Shown one piece after another: positions 1 to 40,632 of a stretch of DNA of 40,632 nucleotides. Numbering within the stretch: position 1 is the stretch's first letter; each line of letters opens with the position of its first letter. The notes below the pieces were generated by a model. The model made no database searches, was not told where the DNA came from, and saw nothing but the letters and a program-made list of their open reading frames with translations. The translations under genes were made by a program, and so were the position numbers. Source of the DNA: a virus (Duplodnaviria > Heunggongvirae > Uroviricota > Caudoviricetes); the IMG/VR virus record IMGVR_UViG_2541047846_000008, positions 1 through 40,632 of that record. One strand, written 5' to 3'.

Positions 1-420
1 ATGACGGATTATCAGCCATACAGGAAAGGAACTGTGCTTGCCCCAACTGGGCCATGCAATCATCTTCATGTGATTTGTAATGATCCTGTTTATTACCCCG
101 TTAACGATTGTTATTGTGTTTTAGTTGTTAATATTTCTAGTATCAAGGATGGTGTCCCCCACGATCCGTCTTGCGTCTTGAATTCTGGTGATCATCGCTT
201 TATCAAGCATCCAAGTTATGTTGTTTACGCTGAAGCTATAATTTGGCGAGTGGATAACATGGTTAGAAAGCAGCGATCGGGTGAGATTTCTGTTCATGAT
301 GATATGCCAGAAGCTACATTCAATAGAATTCTGGACGGTTTTGATATCTCTGATGAAGTTACGCCAAAGAACCTTAAATTTAAAAATAAATATTGCGTAT
401 CATCTATTGATGATGAGTAA
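1..420 (+). CDS. Hypothetical protein, AT-rich cargo ORF (may extend or start upstream of window)
   Basis: 139-aa ORF from track; AT-rich codon usage unlike the phage core; no recognisable motif. Confidence 0.35.
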   Translation: MTDYQPYRKGTVLAPTGPCNHLHVICNDPVYYPVNDCYCVLVVNISSIKDGVPHDPSCVLNSGDHRFIKHPSYVVYAEAIIWRVDNMVRKQRSGEISVHDDMPEATFNRILDGFDISDEVTPKNLKFKNKYCVSSIDDE

Positions 421-459
421 ACAACAGGAATTGTTTCGGTATAACTTCAGGAGTTTTCT

Positions 460-633
460 ATGGAAGATCAAAAAGCAACCAAGCCACAGGTTAAGTTCGA
501 CACAATGAAAGCATTCGCAGGTATGGGTGCTGCTGTTGAAGTTCTGATGAAGGCTGCTCCTAATGCGTTCACTCACGCTACTGTCTCTGGTAAAGAGCAG
601 CAGGGTAAGCTTCGTCGTCGCAAAGCAGCATGA
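460..633 (+). CDS. Small hypothetical protein (57 aa) with basic C-terminus
   Basis: ATG at 460 preceded by AGGAG about 7 nt upstream; ends TGA at 631..633, directly before a strong terminator; not in ORF track (under 60 aa). Confidence 0.4.
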   Translation: MEDQKATKPQVKFDTMKAFAGMGAAVEVLMKAAPNAFTHATVSGKEQQGKLRRRKAA

Positions 634-652
634 TCATAGCTGGTGCTTTTTG

Positions 653-678
653 AAAACCCGCCTTTAGGCGGGTTTTTT
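653..678. terminator. Bidirectional Rho-independent terminator
   Basis: AAAA-CCCGCC-TTTA-GGCGGG-TTTTTT: 6-bp GC stem, tetraloop, flanking A-run and T-run; sits between convergent genes. Confidence 0.7.
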
Positions 679-680
679 AT

Positions 681-989
681 TTAGTGATGTTCTTTGCCCT
701 TCTGTTTGCTTGTTCTGACCTGTTCCCACTCGATACGTCCTTCTTCTCGTCTTTTGTCTATGTATTCCGCAAGATCCTGAATATTGATGCAACGTTTTGC
801 TTTTTGTGATGTGCCGATGCGATATGTTGGAACGGGCAACTTACAAGCGTTTGCTTTTGCTTCTGCCGTGGCTGGACTCATGCCAAAGTACTTTTGGCTA
901 ACTGCTGAGAGTTCAATGTTAGGGGTATTGAATTCAGCCATCAGTAAAAACAAGGTGTTCATAATTTTCTCCATCAAAACCGGCTGCAC
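681..989 (-). CDS. Excisionase-like small DNA-binding protein (PrtN/Xis-like); true start probably an internal Met
   Basis: Small basic protein at the distal end of the leftward early operon; composition and position typical of phage Xis-like regulators. Confidence 0.45.
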   Translation of the reverse strand: MQPVLMEKIMNTLFLLMAEFNTPNIELSAVSQKYFGMSPATAEAKANACKLPVPTYRIGTSQKAKRCINIQDLAEYIDKRREEGRIEWEQVRTSKQKGKEHH

Positions 990-998
990 CCGGGAAAA

Positions 999-1574
999 TC
1001 ATAATTCTGTGCTGGTGGCAGGAATTAATTTCTGCCAGATAGCGGAAACATATTTTGCCTGATGACGGGCATCAGCCAGGGCGTTGTGCCGTTCGCCATC
1101 GAAAGGCATGTCCATTTTGGGGTCGAATCCGATGGAACGCCCAAGCGTAACGATCGTGCGTACATCGTGGTCATTCCAGTATGCCCACGGGCAGATTTGT
1201 CCTGCTCGCTCATAAGCTCCACGTAAAATTACGTTGTCGAAGGTGGCTCCGTTACCCCAGACTTTTAAATATTTCGTATTGTCTGCGTGCCGGTTAATGA
1301 AATGATTTAGTTCTGAGAGAGCATCGCTGATCGACAAAGTATCATCAATACAGATTGCAGCTCGTGCTTCAGGGCTTTGTTTCAACCACCACAGGATGGT
1401 ATCGCCGTCAGGTGTAGCTCCTTGCCCCATAGCACTTTCCAGGCTAACAACCGTATAGAATTCTTGTCCGATGTCTCCGGTTTCTGGAGTGAAGAACACC
1501 GCGCCAATGGAAACGATCGGTGCATCCTTATTTTTCCCCATCGTCTCAAGGTCGATCATTAAGTTGTTCATCAC
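999..1574 (-). CDS. DnaQ-like 3'-5' exonuclease (DEDD family)
   Basis: N-terminal MIDLETMG motif (Exo I D-x-E) and conserved acidic and His residues downstream; ~190 aa. Confidence 0.6.
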   Translation of the reverse strand: MMNNLMIDLETMGKNKDAPIVSIGAVFFTPETGDIGQEFYTVVSLESAMGQGATPDGDTILWWLKQSPEARAAICIDDTLSISDALSELNHFINRHADNTKYLKVWGNGATFDNVILRGAYERAGQICPWAYWNDHDVRTIVTLGRSIGFDPKMDMPFDGERHNALADARHQAKYVSAIWQKLIPATSTEL

Positions 1575-3396: not shown

Positions 3397-4221
3397 TCAG
3401 GCGGTGAAAGTACCAATAAAGGTTTCTACTTTGCTGTCTTTGAATTTCTCAACAAGCAGATCACGAAATTCGTTAGCCATTTCTTCCTGCACCGCTTCCA
3501 GCTGAATAATGCGCAGAACCAGTACAGGACGATCGCCAGTGATAATGCTGAGGCGTAATTTAAACGGACGTTCTTTCAGACCTTCAAACGGAACGCATTT
3601 AAATTCAAATGCCACTGGCATAATGTCTTTGGTCTTCGCTTCGACAGACTCCATCAGGGAGCGTTTGCCGCTGAAGTCATTGTCTTCAAAATCAGCGGTC
3701 TGGTTCGCTTCAATTGTGATTTTACGGATCGCCGCAGCCGCTTTGGTTGCCTGAATGGCGTCACCATTAGCATCAAAGCCCACAAGGTAGTCGGCCCAGT
3801 CTTCAATCCATTCTGCCAGTGACTTCTGGGAGTTACGCTCGCCATTAACAGACAACAGAGCATAGAACGGTGCTGTCTTTTTCAGTTTGAGAGTGGCGGT
3901 GTTATCTGCGTGACCTGGTTCATCAATAGTACCCAGGTTAAGCACACTGACGGCTCGCATATTATCGGCATCGATAAAGCAGCGGGTGCCTTCATCTGCA
4001 AGATCTTTAGAATAACGGGTAAAGTCATCGATGCTGGCAGTGGAAAGTGCACCACGGAAACGGAAACGATTTAAATTAAATTTTTCCAGATCATGAATGC
4101 GGAAATTCTCAGGCAATGCCACAGCATCGGCACCAATCTTACTGATAATTTCATTAACACCCTGAGCAGAAATAAGGGCATGGATTTGATTAATTGCGGT
4201 TGAGTCTAAGTTCTGAGACAT
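3397..4221 (-). CDS. yfdQ: YfdQ-like (DUF2303-type) phage protein
   Basis: 274-aa ORF; size and position match CPS-53 YfdQ; symbol by analogy. Confidence 0.55.
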
Positions 4222-4649: not shown

Positions 4650-5520
4650 TTTGCTGCTCCTCATCATATCGACCCTGCAAGGTCGGTTGGTTTCTCCACA
4701 AAACAGAGAAGAACACCTGCGGTGGCAGCCGCCCGGATGGATTGGGTTATGAGCCCGTCGTCCGGTGATGTTCTTCTCTGTTTTGTAAAAAGAGCGGTAC
4801 CAGCCGGAAGCAAGTGTACAAACTGGTACCGCCAAAGCAGTGGCTGTTGTGGTGACCGGTGCTGATCTCCGGCTTGCGGTTATTTCAGACTCTCACGGGC
4901 GTTTAATTGCCCCGCCGAACAGCTCTTTTCCGCAATAGCTGCAATGTCTTTCGCGCATCAGCCTGCGCATTCACCACAACGCTGAGAGCACTTAGCCAGT
5001 TACGGCACCACACTTTGTCGCGGTTCCATAAATGCCCTCATCGTTGCACCCTGGTCTCTTCCCAGGCGTCAAACCGAATCGCCACGCTGGTTAGGCGTCT
5101 TATCAGCATCATCATTGACTTGCACATTCCGGCTACCTGGTTTGTTTGCCCGAGCAAGGAGTGGATTGTCCCCTTTAACGTCACCAGACCGCTAACGACG
5201 CATGTGCCATACGCCGTGTTACAACCAACCTTTCGTTAACAACAGTCTGTTGTTTGTTCAGATAATGATGCTACTAAAAGTAGCAAAAATCAACAACAAA
5301 AAGTAGAAGTGTGTATTTAATTTTTAGTTTTCTATATAACGTTATGAATTAAAAGGTTTTTCACAGATGGGGTGATGTGGCGTAGTTACGTATAGAAAAT
5401 ATCGAGTGTCTTTTGTTTTGGTTTAATTATTAGGTTAATTAGATAGTAATAATTTGGGGGAAAATAGTGGGAACTATGGATACAACGGGTCAGGAACAGT
5501 GTTATTAAGCAGGCTACGAG

Positions 5521-5545
5521 TATAAAACCCGACCGGTTGGTCGGG
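5521..5545 (-). terminator. Rho-independent terminator downstream of the ParA-like gene
   Basis: CCCGACC-GGTT-GGTCGGG hairpin followed on the minus strand by TTTTATA. Confidence 0.6.
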
Positions 5546-5581
5546 CGAGAATTATGTTCGTTCTAAATCATGGTTATTGTA

Positions 5582-6667
5582 TTACAGACACTTGACTACT
5601 GTTGAAACATCAGATTCTAGTGCTTCAATTTGTGCTCTATTAGCTTGGGTCGCCATACCATAGATAGTGTAACTCTTATGCTGCAGCCTACTTAAAGGGC
5701 ATCCCTCATGGTTTATTATTGCTGCAAGAGTATTACCATCTTTGACATTTTGAACTCTCTCGAAAGTAGCCACATTTGTGAACAGATGAGGATGTGTATT
5801 TAACAGGTCATCCGTGATTCTTTTGATCTCTTCTGCATGTGATTTGAATGCTTTTGCTGCATCACTTTCATTAGTTCTTGAGCGGTTTTGTACGAAAAGG
5901 TGTAGTTCAGGTAGTTCGATAAGGTTTTGCTTTGCTTCTTTGTTGAAATCTAAGAACATTTCATCTTGTTCTGACTTGTCAATAGACACTCCATAAATAA
6001 GTTTAACAAGGTTTTTTATTCCGCGAATTGATGCAGCATCGGCAGTGCAAGGGATAATTATTCTATTTGCCGCGACTACTCCCAATTCTGTGTAGCTGGC
6101 AAAACTTGGGTTACAATCAATAAAAAATGTTTTTGCTCTGTCAGAAATGTTTTTATCGGCTTCAAAAGATGCTATTAGATCTACCAGCAAAGATCGGCTT
6201 TTCTTCCATGCTTCTTTTACTGGGGATGAGCCAATGTGAGATATTAAGCGTGAACAGATATCAAGATCGACATCACCAGGAAGAATATATAAGTTCTCTG
6301 GCATTTTTGCATTAACATCATGGGCTCGTACAAAGTAAGAAGATTCATTTCCTAAACGAGACAAAGGAGATTTGCTAAAACGCTCCTTGATATAACCTGC
6401 GATTGTAACATTTCTGTCTCGCAATTTATTTAGATTTTCTTCCCCGGTACCATTGCCACCAAGAATAATTTCTGAAACGTTTGATTGAGGGCATGAGTCA
6501 ATAACCACAACATCTTGATCCGGATGAGATATAGCAAACTCAACGGCAAGATTATATGTAAGAAAAGTTTTTCCTACACCACCTTTGTTGTTCCATACTA
6601 AATATTTTGTATTGGTGGAAATCATATCTGCTACCCCATCTGTCGCTTCAGTACGTTCATTAATCAT
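5582..6667 (-). CDS. ParA/MinD-family P-loop ATPase with ~110-aa C-terminal extension; AT-rich moron next to repressor
   Basis: Deviant Walker A NNKGGVGKT near N-terminus, FIDCNPS and IIIPCTAD motifs; 361 aa; AT-rich; own terminator. Confidence 0.75.
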   Translation of the reverse strand: MINERTEATDGVADMISTNTKYLVWNNKGGVGKTFLTYNLAVEFAISHPDQDVVVIDSCPQSNVSEIILGGNGTGEENLNKLRDRNVTIAGYIKERFSKSPLSRLGNESSYFVRAHDVNAKMPENLYILPGDVDLDICSRLISHIGSSPVKEAWKKSRSLLVDLIASFEADKNISDRAKTFFIDCNPSFASYTELGVVAANRIIIPCTADAASIRGIKNLVKLIYGVSIDKSEQDEMFLDFNKEAKQNLIELPELHLFVQNRSRTNESDAAKAFKSHAEEIKRITDDLLNTHPHLFTNVATFERVQNVKDGNTLAAIINHEGCPLSRLQHKSYTIYGMATQANRAQIEALESDVSTVVKCL

Positions 6668-6901
6668 TATCGTATCCTGTTGTATAGAATTGTCTATTAT
6701 TTATGTTTTATTTTGGTTTTTTTTGTGTTAGTAACGCACCCAAAGATAACATATGGTCTTTATCTTTTCTTACTTAGGGTAACAGCTCAGTGTTAATCCA
6801 TTTTTATGGACCAATGTGCCAAATAAAATTTGTATAAAGATTTTCTATCCTTATCTTTTATCATCTGTGCTCGTTTGCTTTAACGATTGCTAGATGCCTA
6901 A

Positions 6902-7642
6902 TTAAAGTCGATTATATTTAATCGACTCATGAATCAGTGCCTTACCCATAACATAAAGCTGATCTTGCGACTTCTCATCAATGTACCATTTCTCATAGGC
7001 GGGGTTATCCGAAAGAACAGCTAGTTTGTTGCCTTGCATTTGTAGACGTTTAACATGGAAAGTCTTACCGTAAACGAAAGAGTAAACTCCATCAGTCTGG
7101 AAGTGGCGAACGGAAATGTCGACAAACAATCGATCCCCGGAAACAAGAGTTGGGGACATACTATCTCCATTTACCGTCATAACTTTTATATCATTCTGAG
7201 AACGGTTTCCGAAAAGAGAACGGGCATGTTCAGTTGTGAACTCAATGGCGTAGAGCACATCAACATAGTCTGAAAGCATATAGGTCCCAGGTCCTGCGCT
7301 AACGCTAAGATCCAAAACTTCTATCCTGTATACATCGGGCTTTGTTGGATTGGGGATGCTTGCCATTTCCTTACATTCCTCTCTATCTCCAACACCATAT
7401 TCTAGATATGAAGCTGATACTCCAAGAGCCAACGCAAGTTTACTCATGACAGAGACACGTGGCTTCGCTGCGCCGATTGTGTATCGACGAGCCATTTCAT
7501 ATGTAACGCCCACAAGACTTTTGAGTTGAGTGACAGAGATTCCTTTGATTGTCATCAATTCGTTTAGTCTCTTGGCGAAATCTGGATACTTCTGTTCTTC
7601 TACCATAGGTAGAAGATTACTCACATCACACGCGCTAGTCAT
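6902..7642 (-). CDS. CI-like prophage repressor (N-terminal HTH, C-terminal S24 LexA-like autopeptidase)
   Basis: HTH segment followed by VNGDSMSPTL (S24 catalytic Ser) and downstream Lys; divergent from cro; internal ATG start consistent with a leaderless transcript. Confidence 0.85.
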   Translation of the reverse strand: MTSACDVSNLLPMVEEQKYPDFAKRLNELMTIKGISVTQLKSLVGVTYEMARRYTIGAAKPRVSVMSKLALALGVSASYLEYGVGDREECKEMASIPNPTKPDVYRIEVLDLSVSAGPGTYMLSDYVDVLYAIEFTTEHARSLFGNRSQNDIKVMTVNGDSMSPTLVSGDRLFVDISVRHFQTDGVYSFVYGKTFHVKRLQMQGNKLAVLSDNPAYEKWYIDEKSQDQLYVMGKALIHESIKYNRL

Positions 7643-7644
7643 TT

Positions 7645-7680
7645 CTATTTTAAGTAGTTGCAATTTGCTATTTTAAGTAG
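7645..7680. promoter_or_regulatory. Operator region of the cI/cro switch: two copies of CTATTTTAAGTAG
   Basis: 13-bp partly palindromic direct repeats at about 7645..7657 and 7668..7680 between divergent cI and cro. Confidence 0.5.
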
Positions 7681-27397: not shown

Positions 27398-29222
27398 ATT
27401 TGAGCTTAAGGCGTTGATCACCGGTGTCGACAGGCTTTCTCCCGCGCTGTCGAAAATGCAAAAGAAAATCCGGGGATTTAAACGCCAGGCGGAAGAAGCG
27501 TCACAGGGTGGGCTGGCGCTTGGTGGCGGACTGGCAGCGGGTCTGACGCTTTCCCTGAAATCTTATGCCGATCAGGAAAACGCCGCCACCGGGCTGAAAG
27601 TCGCCATGATGGATGCGAACGGCGAGGTTGGAAAGAGCTTTCAGGACATCAATAAACTGGCTATTGGCCTGGGTAACCAGCTACCTGGTACAACGGCTGA
27701 TTTCCAGAACATGATGCAGATGCTGGTGCGTCAGGGGATCCCGGCAGAAAACATTCTGGGTGGTGTGGGTAAAGCGACAGCTTATCTTGCGGTACAACTG
27801 AAAAAAACACCGGAAGCGGCTGCTGAGTTTGCAGCAAAGATGCAGGATGCTACCGGAACGGCGTCAGAAGACATGATGGGGCTGTTCGACACTATCCAGA
27901 AGGCGTTTTATCTGGGCGTTGACGATACCAACATGTTGTCCTTCTTCACTAAAACCAGTTCTGTTCTGAAGATGGTGAACAAGGACGGTCTTCAGGCTGC
28001 GCAGAGCCTTGCCCCCATCAGCGTCATGATGGATCAGATGGGGATGAACGGGGAGTCGGCAGGTAATGCCCTGCGAAAAGTTATCCAGTCCGGATTAAGC
28101 GTTAAGAAAATCAGGGACGTTAATAAAGTTATGGCCCGCCAGAAACTCGGGGTACAGCTCGATTTTACTGACGGCAAAGGAAGTTTTGGCGGTCTTGATA
28201 ACATGTTCAGGCAACTGGCAAAGCTGCGAAAACTGACCGACGTTAAGCGAACAGGTGTACTTAAGGCAATATTTGGTGATGATGCCGAAACCCTTCAGGT
28301 GGTCAATGCACTAATCGATAAAGGAAAGGATGGCTACGATCAGATCCAGCAGAAGATGAATAAACAGGCCAGCCTGAATAAACGTGTTCAGGCACAGCTT
28401 GGTACGCTGTCCAACCTGTGGGAGGCAATGACAGGGACCGCAACTAACGGCCTTGCGGCTATTGGCGGCGCATTTTCTGGTGACGCTAAAAATATCACAC
28501 AATGGCTGGGGGAGTTGGGGGAGAAATTCACGAAGTTTGCGGATGAAAATCCCCGGGTTATTCGCGGCGTCGTCGGGCTTGCTGCCGGTCTTGCGATTCT
28601 GAAACTGGGATTGATGGGCGTGGGCAGTGCCATCAGTATTGTCAGCAGGATTATGTCGATGACGCCGATTGGCATGATTGCGACGGCGATTGCTCTGGCT
28701 GCGGGATTAATTATCACTAACTGGGATGTTGTCGGACCTTATTTTAAGAAGCTCTGGGAAACCATTGGTCCTTATTTTGAGGCTGGCTGGGAACTTCTGA
28801 AGAAAGTTTTTGCCTGGTCGCCGCTGGGAATGGTGATCAATAACTGGGGACCGGTTGTTAAGTGGTTTCAGGATATGTGGGACAAGCTGAAGCCAATTAT
28901 TGAGTGGTTTACCGACAGTTCCGGTGACACGGTCGATGCCATTAACTCTGCGCAGTGGGGCGCGGGTGCTTATGATGCTTATGGGACGGGAATACCGGCG
29001 CGGGGATACACACCTTATCCGGCGGTGGATCCGGCTCAGTCAAACAACGCCTCCGATGCCACAGGCTCGAATCCCTTCATGATTAACAAAGCTTCTGTGC
29101 CAAAAGTTGATGGTGAGATCAAGGTATCTTTTGTGAATTCGCCTCCGGGTATGCGGGTTATGGAAACGCGATCCAGCGGTTTTGATGTCAGCCATGATGT
29201 TGGCTATACGTGGTTCAGGTAG
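27390..29222 (+). CDS. Tail tape measure protein
   Basis: 610 aa, helical N-terminal half, Gly-rich hydrophobic central TM-like region; conserved position. Confidence 0.85.
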   Translation: MAEFELKALITGVDRLSPALSKMQKKIRGFKRQAEEASQGGLALGGGLAAGLTLSLKSYADQENAATGLKVAMMDANGEVGKSFQDINKLAIGLGNQLPGTTADFQNMMQMLVRQGIPAENILGGVGKATAYLAVQLKKTPEAAAEFAAKMQDATGTASEDMMGLFDTIQKAFYLGVDDTNMLSFFTKTSSVLKMVNKDGLQAAQSLAPISVMMDQMGMNGESAGNALRKVIQSGLSVKKIRDVNKVMARQKLGVQLDFTDGKGSFGGLDNMFRQLAKLRKLTDVKRTGVLKAIFGDDAETLQVVNALIDKGKDGYDQIQQKMNKQASLNKRVQAQLGTLSNLWEAMTGTATNGLAAIGGAFSGDAKNITQWLGELGEKFTKFADENPRVIRGVVGLAAGLAILKLGLMGVGSAISIVSRIMSMTPIGMIATAIALAAGLIITNWDVVGPYFKKLWETIGPYFEAGWELLKKVFAWSPLGMVINNWGPVVKWFQDMWDKLKPIIEWFTDSSGDTVDAINSAQWGAGAYDAYGTGIPARGYTPYPAVDPAQSNNASDATGSNPFMINKASVPKVDGEIKVSFVNSPPGMRVMETRSSGFDVSHDVGYTWFR

Positions 29223-29295: not shown

Positions 29296-29321
29296 CCTTA
29301 CAAATGATTGAAGGGATGATT

Positions 29322-29816
29322 ATGCGTATCTTTGTTTTTTTTATATCTGCACTTTTATCTTTTAACTTGGCTGCGGAAGAGTGTAAGTTCAGCTTTAATG
29401 AGTCAGAATTAATCTCTTCTATAGGTATTGCACCAGTTAAGCAAGAGATAATAAAGGATGAAGGAATAACTAAGCGGCAATATGAATTCAGAAGAGAATT
29501 ATCTTCTGAAGAAATGCTTAGTGATGACGCTGATGAAAAATATGAGCCGCAGTTTTATATATCTGTTTATAATCCATCATGCCCACAAAAGGTTATTGTT
29601 TGGTTTTTCAAAGACAATAAAAACACAATGGATTTAAGTAATGAGGTCCTTGCTGGTAGAGCGTTCAAGTATTTAACTGGTGTTAATGAAAGTATTTTTG
29701 AAAATAAAATGAAAAAGTTTTTAAAGGTACAGTCATTTGAATCTTTTGATGAAAGGACAGATTCTAAATTTATAAAGAGTGGTGATATTTATTCCATTGA
29801 TGTTCAACTCAGATAG
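29322..29816 (+). CDS. Secreted/periplasmic hypothetical protein (AT-rich moron inside the tail operon)
   Basis: Signal-peptide-like N-terminus MRIFVFFISALLSFNLAAEE; GAAGGG RBS; AT-rich; own promoter-like and terminator-like elements (track ORF starts 29304). Confidence 0.6.
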   Translation: MRIFVFFISALLSFNLAAEECKFSFNESELISSIGIAPVKQEIIKDEGITKRQYEFRRELSSEEMLSDDADEKYEPQFYISVYNPSCPQKVIVWFFKDNKNTMDLSNEVLAGRAFKYLTGVNESIFENKMKKFLKVQSFESFDERTDSKFIKSGDIYSIDVQLR

Positions 29817-34907: not shown

Positions 34908-35654
34908 ATGCATCGTATAGACACGAAAACCGCGCAGAAGGATAAGTTCGGCGCGGGTAAGAACGGTTTTACCCGTGGTAACCCCCAGACCGGCACACCT
35001 GCCACCGATCTGGATGATGACTACTTTGACATGTTGCAGGAAGAACTTTGTAGCGTGGTGGAGGCCTCCGGTGCCAGCCTGGAGAAGGCGCGGCACGACC
35101 AGTTGCTTACCGCGCTTCGTGCGCTGCTGTTAAGCCGCAAGAATCCGTTTGGCGATATCAAATCGGATGGCACGGTGGAAACGGCTCTCGAAAACCTTGG
35201 TTTGGGAGAAGGTGCTCCAGCTATTGGCGTTCCGTTCTTCTGGCCGTCCGCTGCAATGCCAAATACTGTAATCGACAGCTGGTCCAGTATGGTGTTTTTG
35301 AAGTTCAACGGCGCGAAATTCTCTGCCACTGATTATCCTGTGCTGGCGAAAGTGTTTCCTTCGCTGGTATTACCTGAAGCCCGCGGTGATTTCATTCGTA
35401 TCTGGGATGACGGGCGAGGTGCAGACGGTGGTCGCGAATTATTAAGCTGGCAGGAAGCTACAAACTTTTCTCAGTTTGCCGGGAATATAGTCGGAGGTGC
35501 GGGACACGCAATTAACTTTCATGATGGCATCGCCGGAAATCAGCCAGGATTTTCACGATTTAATTTCACCAGTAACTCTGTGGGTGATGGTGTGAATTTT
35601 GTTGCTGTCAGACCGCGAAATATTGCATTTAACTTTCTGGTGAGGGCTAAATAA
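34908..35654 (+). CDS. Tail fibre protein (constant N-terminus to about 35216, variable C-terminus inside invertible segment)
   Basis: 248 aa; crossover site inside the gene; an alternative C-terminal exon lies on the opposite strand. Confidence 0.8.
35187..35216. repeat. Left recombination (crossover) site of the invertible segment, inside the tail fibre gene
   Basis: ctcgaaaaccttggtttgggagaaggtgct; matches the inverted partner at 36925..36954 in 20 of 21 positions; resembles hix/gix-type sites. Confidence 0.5.
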
Positions 35655-36247
35655 TGAAACCTGTTTTTGATGAAAATGGGCTGGCCACAGTGCCGGGCGA
35701 TATGCGTTGTTTTTATTATGATGCTGAAACATCTGAGTATACGGGCTGGTCTGATGAATATATTAATACTGGCGTAAGTATGCCCGCCTGTTCCACTGGT
35801 ATTGACCCGGGCGAAAACATTCCGGGGAAAGTGGCAGTATTTACGGGTAAGGGATGGAGCCATGAAGAAGACTATCGCAATGAGACTGTTTACTCAACAG
35901 AAAATGGCGCAGCTGTTACAGTGGATTATATCGGTGCCATCAAAAACGGTTATGTCACGCTTTCACCGTTAACGCCATATGATAAATGGGATGGTGAGAA
36001 ATGGGTGACAGATACTGAGGCACAACACGGTGCCGCAGTAGAAGCAGCAGAAGCACAGCGCCAGTCACTGATTGATGCAGTAATGGCTTCCATTAGTCTG
36101 ATTCAGCTGAAATTACAGGCCGGACGGAAACTGACTCAGGCAGAAACAACCCGACTTAACACCGTGCTGGATTACATTGACGCGGTGACGGCAACAGATA
36201 CCAGCACCGCGCCGGATGTCATCTGGCCTGAACTGCCGGAGGCGTAG
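35654..36247 (+). CDS. Tail fibre assembly protein (Tfa), active orientation
   Basis: 197 aa; conserved C-terminal motif TSTAPD(V/I)xWPExP shared with the inverted copy. Confidence 0.8.
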
Positions 36248-36647
36248 GCCATTCAATATCGGGTGCTGTTGAAGTATCAACACGCATCAGCAGCACACGG
36301 TATTTCTTCCATTCGGTGAGAGTTGAAGTTTCTTCATCAGTTGCGATATCAGCATCAACAGCATCCTGACGCCAGGATATTTCACTGTCAGCTTTTTCCC
36401 GTAATTGGGATTTTTTAACTTCAGCAATAGCTATTAATTCCTTTTTGGTCGGCTGAGGAATATCTATCAGTGCTGGTTTTCCATTCAGTGTTCCAATCTG
36501 TTTTCCTGGTGGAATATCCATAAATAACTTTTTATGTTCTTCCTCACTGACTATTACACCATCATCAGGCCACAGACCTGATGCCTCAAATTTTTCTTTC
36601 TCCGATATGGGGAAAAAGCCATTTGATTTAGCGCTCCATACGTACAT
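36219..36647 (-). CDS. Tail fibre assembly protein (Tfa), alternative copy in inverted orientation
   Basis: 142 aa; C-terminal motif [15 protein letters not shown]; convergent with the other Tfa. Confidence 0.75.
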
Positions 36648-36648
36648 A

Positions 36649-36915
36649 TCAATACCCCACCGCTATAATGTCCACATTAAATCCCCCGGGACCTGCCTGC
36701 CAGATGCTGGCCCCTGTTAATGATTTTGTTTGATGAACAACCGCCACATTTGCTGGTGATTGTGTTTCAGTTGTTACAGTACCGATATCATTCCAGTTAA
36801 TTGAGATGGAATAGTTCGTTGTTGTAAACGACCGGGGGAAAGTTATGTGTCTTGCATTGGTGCCAATAGGAAATCCAAGATAAACACGCTGAATTATCAT
36901 TCCTCCAGGTAACAT
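36649..36915 (-). CDS. Alternative tail fibre C-terminal segment (promoterless; frame stays open upstream to the crossover site)
   Basis: Upstream in-frame sequence reads ..[12 protein letters not shown].., matching ..ENLGLGEGA.. of the expressed fibre. Confidence 0.6.
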
Positions 36916-36924
36916 AACCCAGTT

Positions 36925-36954
36925 AGCACCTTCTCCAAAACCAACCTTTCAAAT
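36925..36954. repeat. Right recombination (crossover) site of the invertible segment
   Basis: agcaccttctccaaaaccaacctttcaaat, inverted relative to the site at 35187..35216. Confidence 0.5.
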
Positions 36955-37015
36955 ATTTTTCTGAATCAGGTGATATTTCGCCTCTTCTCCTGTTTTTACA
37001 ACAGGAGAAGCACTC

Positions 37016-37579
37016 ATGATTTACGGGTATGTTCGTGTATCAACAAATCATCAGGATACAGAGTTGCAACGTCTTGCACTTGAGTCAGCTGGCTGTGAGC
37101 GAATTTATGAAGAATATGCCAGTGGCAGAACAGCTAATCGCCCTGTGTTAAAGGAATTAATTACGGTGATGAAAAGTGGAGATGAGTTGATTGTCTGGAA
37201 GTTAGATCGGATAGGGAGAAATGTGCTGCATGCGCTATTGATGTTTCAAAATCTGCACGAAAAAGGTGTTAATTTTCGGAGTATTACAGATGGCGTAGAC
37301 CTGAAAACAGCAAGTGGTCGCTATAATTTCCGTAATATTCTTTCTGCTGCGCAGTATGAATCTGATTTGAATAGCGAGCGAACTTTAGCTGGTTTGGCTA
37401 TTGCCAGATCCAAAGGCCGGATTGGTGGGCGTAGACCGAAGTTTAGCGACGAGCAGTGGCAACAGATGGGAGCGCTCATAGCGGCAGGGAAATCACGGCG
37501 TTATGTTGCACGTATCTATAACGTTGGGCTATCAACCCTATATAAACGATTTCCTGTTACTGGCATTCAAACGAAATAA
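37016..37579 (+). CDS. pin: Serine DNA invertase (Pin/Gin/Hin family)
   Basis: N-terminal YVRVSTxxQ catalytic Ser motif and C-terminal HTH; 187 aa; adjacent to inverted crossover sites. Confidence 0.9.
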   Translation: MIYGYVRVSTNHQDTELQRLALESAGCERIYEEYASGRTANRPVLKELITVMKSGDELIVWKLDRIGRNVLHALLMFQNLHEKGVNFRSITDGVDLKTASGRYNFRNILSAAQYESDLNSERTLAGLAIARSKGRIGGRRPKFSDEQWQQMGALIAAGKSRRYVARIYNVGLSTLYKRFPVTGIQTK

Positions 37580-38032: not shown

Positions 38033-39130
38033 TCAAGAGGCCTTATTTCTGCTCCTTTGGAGCTCTTCAAAACGATTATGTAAAGATTTCGGATACAGTT
38101 CGGTATATACCTGCCATAGCACGTTTAATGAACGATGCCCTGTAACCTGGGCGACTTCCTCAATACTAAAACCAGCCTCAAATAAGCGACTTGCCCCTTC
38201 TCTACGCAAATCATGGTATCGCAGATCTTTAATACCTAATTTGCTTCTTACCCTCTGGAATCCCGCAGTAACAGAAGTGCTGTTATATGGAAAAATGAAT
38301 TCTGATTTTTTGGGTTGTCGTTGGACGATATCCCAGGCTTCCCCAAGCAAGGCTACTTTCATATGGTTGCCTTCCTTTTTACGTGGATCTTTCCTGTCTC
38401 TTACGAGTATGGATTTTTGTTCCTGATCGAGATCCTCCCATCGTAATCGGCATACTTCACCGATTCGCATACATGACCACACAGAAAATTTGAGGATATC
38501 AACGAACGGAATTTTTGAGCATTTATGTGTAGATCGTTGTTGAAGACCTTCAATGAGCATGTCCAGTTCATCAGATGCCGGTCTACGATTACGACGATTT
38601 GATTTACCAATTAAACCAAGTTTAAGTAGATATGGACGAGCGGCTTTTGCTGGGTTTGATGTGTAATTAATTCCATATACAGGTTTGGCAGCATCCAGAA
38701 CACTGCCAAGATAACTAACATCGTGGCTAACTGTAGCTGGACCTGCACCAGCGTTGTTTCTTAGCCTGCAATGTTCAATTACGTCATTTTCTGTCAGTTC
38801 AGATAGTTTGAGCGCGGAGACGTCACTATCCATAAGCAGTTCCAGCACATATCTTTTAGTACGGCCTGCTTTACCTCCGGCATTTGGGTCATTTAAATAT
38901 TTGTGTAGTAAGTCACGGACTGTAAGTCCGTCAACTGCATTTGATGATGGAATGCCATATAGATCTAATTCCATCACTTTCTGTGTGCCCCATGTTTTGG
39001 CATGAGCATGTTTAGGGAATGTTTTACTTTCCCTGTAAGTGATAACACCTTTTTCTTTGATAATCACATTACAGCGATAGCGTGGTGTGCCATCGGATTT
39101 TAGTCGTTTCTCTATGTTATAGTATGCCAT
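38033..39130 (-). CDS. int: Tyrosine integrase (DusA-targeting type)
   Basis: 365 aa; C-terminal catalytic region with RxxR ... HDLRR ... Y pattern; adjacent to dusA. Confidence 0.9.
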   Translation of the reverse strand: MAYYNIEKRLKSDGTPRYRCNVIIKEKGVITYRESKTFPKHAHAKTWGTQKVMELDLYGIPSSNAVDGLTVRDLLHKYLNDPNAGGKAGRTKRYVLELLMDSDVSALKLSELTENDVIEHCRLRNNAGAGPATVSHDVSYLGSVLDAAKPVYGINYTSNPAKAARPYLLKLGLIGKSNRRNRRPASDELDMLIEGLQQRSTHKCSKIPFVDILKFSVWSCMRIGEVCRLRWEDLDQEQKSILVRDRKDPRKKEGNHMKVALLGEAWDIVQRQPKKSEFIFPYNSTSVTAGFQRVRSKLGIKDLRYHDLRREGASRLFEAGFSIEEVAQVTGHRSLNVLWQVYTELYPKSLHNRFEELQRSRNKAS

Positions 39131-40389: not shown

Positions 40390-40632
40390 ATGCTGGAACT
40401 ACTTTTTGTAATTGGCTTTTTTGTCATGCTGATGGTCACCGGTGTTTCGTTGCTGGGTATTATCGCCGCGCTGATTGTGGCGACGGCCTTTATGTTCCTC
40501 GGCGGTATGCTGGCATTGATGATTAAGTTGCTGCCGTGGCTGCTGTTGGCGGTTGCGGTGGTGTGGGTGATCAGGGCAATTAAAGCACCAAAAGTGCCGA
40601 AATATCAGCGTTATGACCGCTGGCGTTACTAA
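40390..40632 (+). CDS. pspG: Phage shock protein G
   Basis: 80-aa highly hydrophobic protein ending KVPKYQRYDRWRY; internal ATG of track ORF 40180..40632. Confidence 0.8.
   Translation: MLELLFVIGFFVMLMVTGVSLLGIIAALIVATAFMFLGGMLALMIKLLPWLLLAVAVVWVIRAIKAPKVPKYQRYDRWRY

Follow-up and report, generated by a model that had tools for sequence, protein, structure and literature searches.

The left end of a 40,632-nucleotide (nt) viral sequence, IMG/VR record IMGVR_UViG_2541047846_000008 (analysed over its whole length and called the window below), raises a simple question: what are the two small genes that are read rightward there, against the direction of the early phage genes? The plus strand carries an open reading frame (ORF) of 139 amino acids (aa) at 1-420, here ORF139, and, after a gap of 39 nt, a 57-aa ORF with a basic tail at 460-633, here ORF57. 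As the initial annotation had correctly noticed, both are convergent with a minus-strand early-left operon that includes xis, an exonuclease gene and further early genes. That annotation went on to suggest that the two ORFs might be an AT-rich toxin-antitoxin (TA)-like or accessory pair, made up of a large protein and its small partner, and that the first of them might be cut by the edge of the window. Our own reading, to which we give a probability of roughly 0.8, is that 1-420 encodes PanT, the toxin half of a PanAT type II TA module carried in the attL-proximal cargo of a prophage, with the antitoxin gene panA lying off the window and ORF57 being a separate gene.

The evidence for this lies largely to the left of position 1. 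Extending the sequence leftward through identical genomes and phages, the check that the initial annotation had proposed, was indeed the right one, revealing panA and then a dusA 5' pseudogene fragment that marks attL, about 250 bp upstream of panA (3074-3178 in L004, one such locus). The first 1 kb of the window is 100% identical in phage SKA5, in Escherichia coli WP4-S18-ESBL-09 and in other strains, and 98.8% identical in phage Lys8385Vzw (megablast). In both of these phages and in WP4-S18-ESBL-09 a 190-aa gene lies directly upstream of ORF139, its TGA stop overlapping the ORF139 start codon in an ATGA at positions 1-4 of the plus strand; in L004 panA occupies 3432-4004 and ORF139 begins at 4001, the overlap being read from the sequences of L004 and L001. 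The 190-aa protein matches Pfam SocA_Panacea (PF13274) at E 2e-19, bears the RefSeq name "Panacea domain-containing protein" and comprises a stand-alone Panacea domain and, after it, a C-terminal tail of roughly 50 aa. An overlapping Panacea-domain protein is likewise annotated in 14 of 14 listed full-length E. coli matches, a spread of the 205 found. There is no evident Shine-Dalgarno sequence directly upstream of the ORF139 ATG, and the ATGA overlap implies that translation of ORF139 would be coupled to that of panA.

ORF139 truly starts with the ATG at position 1, because its N-terminus (MTxYxPYRKGT) is kept in 33 homologues. What the window edge cuts is therefore not the first ORF, as had been feared, but the operon, at panA. 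The related possibility, a longer host gene of which ORF139 would be only a piece, is ruled out by the same conserved N-terminus together with the ATGA junction. The databases disagree on this point: RefSeq, through the Prokaryotic Genome Annotation Pipeline (PGAP), starts the gene at GTG 34 (34-420; WP_014640052.1, 128 aa, "hypothetical protein"), and in GenBank the phages SKA5 and Lys8385Vzw are annotated with the longer 1-420 form. The shorter PGAP start is probably wrong, since the conserved N-terminus and the ATGA coupling favour the ATG at position 1.

The linkage of ORF139 to a Panacea gene extends well beyond this prophage. When one genome of each species was scanned with a pattern, 43 loci with ORF139 relatives emerged, at 30-87% identity, from the Enterobacterales, Methylococcales, Beggiatoales, Rhodobacterales, Sphingomonadales and Rhizobiales. 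Every one of the 39 other-species loci with an intact toxin ORF has a same-strand ORF of 182-229 aa upstream that ends between -4 and +45 nt from the start of the match, and PF13274 was matched by all 40 upstream proteins scanned (the 39 loci plus the copy in phage Lys8385Vzw). The genes downstream of the toxin in the 43 loci are heterogeneous. Within E. coli, panA+ORF139 DNA is present in 208 of 5,426 complete genomes and is complete in 206, the two exceptions having the insertion sequence IS903B in ORF139 at about nt 140 with panA intact; a search with panA+ORF139 as the query found no E. coli genome that has ORF139 but lacks panA. The panA-ORF139 linkage is near-obligate across Gamma- and Alphaproteobacteria. 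ORF139 thus shows two features of a PanAT system, an adjacent co-directional Panacea gene (here off the window) and a two-gene architecture conserved across divergent taxa (the FlaGs criterion).

The two IS903B copies lie at 1976-2944 of locus L050 (E. coli AR_0089) and 3674-4642 of L058 (E. coli 7_33_46A), the latter strain having also lost the remainder of ORF139 and adjacent prophage genes. These insertions are consistent with tolerated loss of the toxin, and both may stem from one ancestral event.

PanAT systems were defined by Kurata et al. (2022, PNAS 119:e2102212119, PMC8832971), who placed the associated toxins in 88 clusters, and on its sequence ORF139 is a member of cluster T6. This assignment is made because its 57%-identical homologue WP_101821906.1 (P0286 in our set) is the toxin listed in the T6 row "Yersiniaceae bacterium 2016Iso4" of the available part of Dataset S1, our locus L009 having the same -1 spacing as that row, and because locus L010 of Pantoea septica LMG 5345 matches a T6 row there by strain name and -4 spacing. 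In that part of the dataset T6 comprises at least about 87 rows, with the antitoxin first and an overlap that is typically -4 or -1; neither WP_000458584 nor WP_014640052 was found among the rows listed (PMC8832971). The validated T6 pair is that of Pseudomonas moraviensis (PanA WP_083354365.1, PanT WP_083201923.1). Its PanT is toxic and inhibits 35S-Met incorporation, that is, protein synthesis specifically and not DNA or RNA synthesis, and its PanA neutralises PanT, the two proteins being pulled down together (PMC8832971).

The E. coli module resembles the P. moraviensis one in having the antitoxin first, a -4/-1 overlap and a stand-alone PanA (of the kind labelled "noNTD"), and the PanA N-terminus, MFCEEKVAQ, is similar to the corrected P. 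moraviensis one, MIFSEQKVAQ. Like other T6 toxins, ORF139 falls in the range of about 130-140 aa, is matched by no CDD or Pfam entry and is predicted to have a structure like that of MazF. Unlike the validated pair, which is marked "NotPhage", the E. coli copy is carried on a temperate phage.

Structure and profile searches had also been recommended at the outset. ORF139 has no Pfam, NCBIfam or PADLOC match, and ORF57 has no meaningful one; ORF139 falls in phrog_19071, a PHROGs family of unknown function. Hits to ICMT and DapC that appeared in the ORF139 and ORF57 scans were far below the cut-offs and were discarded. The ORF139 family is large, with 2,671 clusters at 50% identity (E <= 1e-3), and across 104 diverse members H21 is invariant, with L22, D55, C58, G63, H65, F67, S72, Y76, G113 and S117 conserved in at least 90%. 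An AlphaFold2 (AF2) model built on the family alignment has a predicted local distance difference test score (pLDDT) of 92.5 and a predicted template-modelling score (pTM) of 0.86. Foldseek, run with this model, returned MazF for every one of its top 40 hits (TM 0.64 on the target; E 1.5e-3), and MazF chains rank above CcdB in both fold searches. The model accordingly predicts a MazF/Kid/CcdB-type fold for ORF139, and it is by predicted fold only that the protein is related to MazF. For ORF57 there is no usable fold: its AF2 model, at pLDDT 61, is of low confidence and shows one helix, at residues 15-32.

The known members of the fold differ from ORF139 in several respects. It is 8-17% identical to MazF, PemK, Kid and EndoA, with no profile match to them; compared with MazF, its strands 1 and 2 are joined by a short loop and it has two extra C-terminal helices (104-131). 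Its partner is a Panacea protein, not the AbrB-type or ribbon-helix-helix antitoxins of the MazE/PemI kind. The conserved residues, among them H21, D55, C58 and H65, are different as well. The catalytic residues of MazF are R29 and T52. At the start of strand 2 the ORF139 family has no conserved Arg, the invariant H21 being located where MazF has R29, and the alignment of S46 with T52 comes only from an hhalign register that is not significant (probability 0.4%).

By analogy with the P. moraviensis T6 pair (Kurata et al. 2022), PanA would bind PanT directly and neutralise it, and free PanT would block translation and thereby arrest growth, endoribonuclease activity being the most likely means. 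Its active site may use the invariant H21 with D55, C58 and H65, and perhaps S46, in place of the R29/T52 of MazF. The panA and panT genes are presumably coupled in translation, and ORF57 would be co-transcribed downstream of them, either left over from, or shared with, a cassette of ORF57 and a phrog_4350 gene that is described below; a hairpin at 652-677 would end the unit. With respect to its biological role we can only speculate: a prophage-borne abortive-infection defence and a stabilisation of the prophage are both possible. Given the PanAT identity and the known cargo slot of the dusA phages in which it is found, the module looks like an ordinary prophage accessory.

ORF57 has a rather different history. 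The protein (460-633, plus strand; basic tail KLRRRKAA) belongs to phrog_2741 at E 8e-36, a narrow, Enterobacterales-only family in which 26 columns are invariant. About 562-565 E. coli genomes carry it, of which some 205 have panAT upstream and 358 a phrog_4350 gene. Wherever ORF139 is missing, in E. coli, in Salmonella and in Hafnia phages, ORF57 always follows a phrog_4350 gene of 177-179 aa; the arrangement with the 178-aa gene is seen in phage mEp460 and in the O157:H7 dusA prophage, and the pair also occurs in Salmonella dusA prophages. In the Hafnia phages the phrog_4350 and ORF57 pair is found at 64% and 70% identity and lies between the Q antiterminator and holin genes, after a 319-352-aa protein with a RelA_SpoT domain (toxSAS-like). 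The 177-179-aa phrog_4350 protein has no Pfam, NCBIfam or PADLOC hit. Our copies of this pair are at 4281-5187 of L002 (gp23-gp24 of mEp460), in L048, in L054-L057 and at 2319-3174 of L051-L053.

Megablast matches to mEp460 and to about 360 E. coli genomes begin at 447-450. The homology between the panAT and phrog_4350 arrangements thus breaks exactly at the Shine-Dalgarno sequence of ORF57 (AGGAG, 449-453, 7 nt upstream of the gene), which makes the plus-strand segment 447-459 a mosaic junction. From these counts of neighbours, the recurrent companion of ORF57 is phrog_4350 and not ORF139. ORF57 is best regarded, on this comparative evidence, as a separate third gene downstream of panAT and no component of it.

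It remains to weigh this against the reading that had been proposed originally, in which ORF139 and ORF57 are themselves the TA-like or accessory pair; on such a view the larger protein would be neutralised or regulated by the small basic one. The attraction of the idea is obvious: the two genes are adjacent, co-directional, 39 nt apart and served by one terminator; ORF57 is small and mostly disordered, as many antitoxins are; and in E. coli it follows nearly every copy of ORF139 (205 full-length matches). Beyond E. coli, though, the pair dissolves, since not one of the 43 related other-species loci gave an ORF57 match by tblastn, while a Panacea gene is present in every locus with an intact toxin ORF. 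Add to this the 358 E. coli genomes and the Salmonella and Hafnia phage copies in which ORF57 does without ORF139, the break in homology at its Shine-Dalgarno sequence and the unlike GC contents of the two genes (38.6% for ORF139, 48.3% for ORF57), and a partnership between them becomes very improbable. The sporadic occurrence of third genes beside PanAT pairs, reported by Kurata et al. (PMC8832971), also fits poorly with it. Thus the suggestion of TA-like cargo survives for ORF139, whose partner is the upstream Panacea gene, and falls for the combination of large protein and small partner, which is not conserved as a pair.

Two further alternatives accept panA as the partner and differ in what the proteins do. 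ORF139 could have the MazF/CcdB fold and be paired with PanA without being an RNase, acting on another target such as gyrase or serving as a non-toxic effector or sensor. CcdB, a gyrase poison, has the same fold as MazF, and ORF139 shows no evident conservation of the canonical catalytic residues of MazF; because of these two points an RNase is only the most likely of several activities. Nevertheless, the specific inhibition of protein synthesis by the validated T6 member (PMC8832971) speaks against a different target, as do the higher rank of MazF chains over CcdB in the fold searches and, in its low-confidence register, the alignment of S46 with T52, and we consider this alternative unlikely. 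The other possibility is a type VI arrangement like that of SocAB in Caulobacter crescentus, with PanA as a ClpXP adaptor through which the toxin would be steadily degraded, rather than as an inhibitor that binds it. The SocAB antitoxin does share the Panacea/DUF4065 domain with the panA product, PF13274 is named after SocA, and the panA product gives a weak hit to the NCBIfam SocA_antitoxin model (E 0.022). That hit amounts to 14.4 bits against a cut-off of 190, leaving the equivalog (NF047745) unmatched. SocB, which targets the beta sliding clamp, is an unrelated toxin assigned in the available part of the dataset to cluster T10 and not T6, and SocA is a ClpXP adaptor. Moreover, Kurata et al. 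showed stable PanA:PanT complexes, that of the T6 pair among them, and class PanAT as type II (PMC8832971), and stand-alone Panacea is reported to neutralise toxins directly (Ernits et al. 2023, PMC10440598). A SocAB-like mechanism is therefore hardly credible here.

Several observations nonetheless count against the PanT reading itself. The panA gene is outside the window, and it is the identical genomes that give the ground for placing it in the source genome. The link from ORF139 to the validated P. moraviensis PanT runs through the clustering of the original paper, and some of the PanAT pairs predicted by Kurata et al. were found to be non-toxic in E. coli (the T1 E. coli row; PMC8832971). 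At the sequence level ORF139 has no similarity to MazF/PemK, the PemK_toxin Pfam model not being matched. Searches of the PDB sequences with hidden Markov models of 33 and then 104 family members gave chance hits only, and hhalign against a thin, hand-typed, four-sequence alignment of MazF, Kid, EndoA and ChpBK returned a probability of just 0.4%. To these must be added the catalytic residues and the fold of CcdB discussed above. Finally, PADLOC-DB 2.0 gave no hit for PanA, ORF139, ORF57 or the phrog_4350 protein, and because of this a role in defence is unsupported.

The setting of the module is that of a lambdoid prophage integrated in dusA of E. coli, with the window cut slightly inside the attL end. 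At the right end of the window an integrase gene (38033-39130, minus strand), at the opposite end of the prophage from ORF139, is followed by a complete dusA whose 5' end is supplied by the phage (39219-40256, plus strand) and by pspG (40390-40632). From the positions of the integrase and of this dusA, the prophage is integrated in dusA and has ORF139 and ORF57 at its attL-proximal end. On the other side of the two genes is the early-left operon, whose last gene (681-989, minus strand) borders the cargo slot and encodes a PrtN-family, excisionase-like protein (Pfam PyocinActivator, E 4e-23; phrog_1300 excisionase, E 8e-40). The operon also includes an Rv2179c-like 3'-5' exonuclease gene (999-1574, minus strand) and, as further minus-strand members, Ea22-like, EaE-like and HD-hydrolase genes. 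The same order of attL with its dusA' fragment, cargo, ORF57, terminator and PrtN-type xis is found in mEp460, Lys8385Vzw, SKA5 and the O157:H7 dusA prophage, and these dusA lambdoid phages have the same integrase, xis and exonuclease genes as the window. Two kinds of cargo alternate in the slot, panAT (about 206 E. coli genomes) and the 178-aa phrog_4350 gene (about 358).

The intergenic hairpin at 652-677 is an intrinsic terminator on the plus strand, with an 11-bp GC-rich stem (GAAAACCCGCC/GGCGGGTTTTT) followed by a U-tract. It had been described as a strong bidirectional terminator, which is only half borne out. On the plus strand it folds with -19 kcal/mol (z -4.4; a fold as good was seen in 0 of 200 shuffles); for the minus strand, the value is -16.2 kcal/mol and the stem is followed by UUUUC only, and a consensus terminator scan calls the hairpin on the plus strand alone. 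The terminator is common to both convergent units, strong on the plus strand and weaker on the minus strand. Rfam gave only sub-threshold, terminator-like matches on 1-1200.

A promoter scan of the window found 0 sites, and that of the attL-panA region 4 against 5.0 expected, which is uninformative. A TTGACC-17-TAAACT site 127 nt upstream of panA was dropped and cannot be taken for a promoter. Given the displaced native dusA 5' fragment at attL, host dusA transcription could read into panA-panT-ORF57.

The base composition of the locus calls for a similar correction. Against a GC content of 50.2% in the rest of the prophage, the AT-rich label given to the two-ORF block fits ORF139 alone, that of ORF57 being ordinary; the 650-nt block as a whole stands at the 8.5th percentile of windows by GC, and AT-richer regions exist elsewhere.

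Systems of the PanAT kind have already been described, and the T6-type copy on the E. coli dusA prophage is uncharacterised. General understanding is unchanged by our results. They do place a T6-type PanAT on an E. coli dusA prophage that is widespread, about 4% of complete genomes having it, and they correct an annotation trap: the only reason for the toxin gene to look like an orphan is that the window starts with its start codon. The prophage is also a convenient natural system in which to ask whether PanAT acts in phage defence or in keeping the prophage, and what it is that the Panacea domain senses.

Two points only might repay more work, the uncharacterised module of phrog_4350 and ORF57 and the conserved but non-canonical residues of the T6 toxins. 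With respect to these we offer two separate readings, possible in our view but doubtful: that phrog_4350 and ORF57 form an undescribed mobile TA or anti-phage module, and that T6 PanT has a His/Asp/His(/Cys) site on a MazF scaffold. If so, phrog_4350 and ORF57 would fill different moron slots (att-xis in E. coli and Salmonella, Q-holin in Hafnia), and the prophage of the window would keep ORF57 as a functional orphan since panAT replaced its partner. The His/Asp/His(/Cys) site would then be a catalytic solution not described for the MazF fold.

Three other regions of the window deserve mention. At 5582-6667 on the minus strand is a gene for a 361-aa ParA/MinD-like P-loop ATPase (Pfam AAA_31, E 3e-16), located in an island of 34-38% GC at about 5100-6800, the most extended AT-rich island of the window, and adjoining a cI-like repressor gene of the S24-peptidase/helix-turn-helix type (6902-7663). 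It could be a moron, a superinfection-exclusion gene or a defence gene in the immunity region. Directly after the tape-measure gene (27390-29222), in a patch of 31-38% GC, the plus strand has a 170-aa ORF (29304-29816) that has no Pfam match and a hydrophobic, signal-sequence-like N-terminal segment; this may be a secreted or envelope moron within the tail module. Lastly, a Hin/Gin-type serine invertase gene (37016-37579; Resolvase, E 3e-36) adjoins oppositely oriented tail-fibre and tail-fibre-assembly ORFs (35654-36915), and 35654-37579 as a whole resembles the invertible host-range segments of Mu G or P1 C type.
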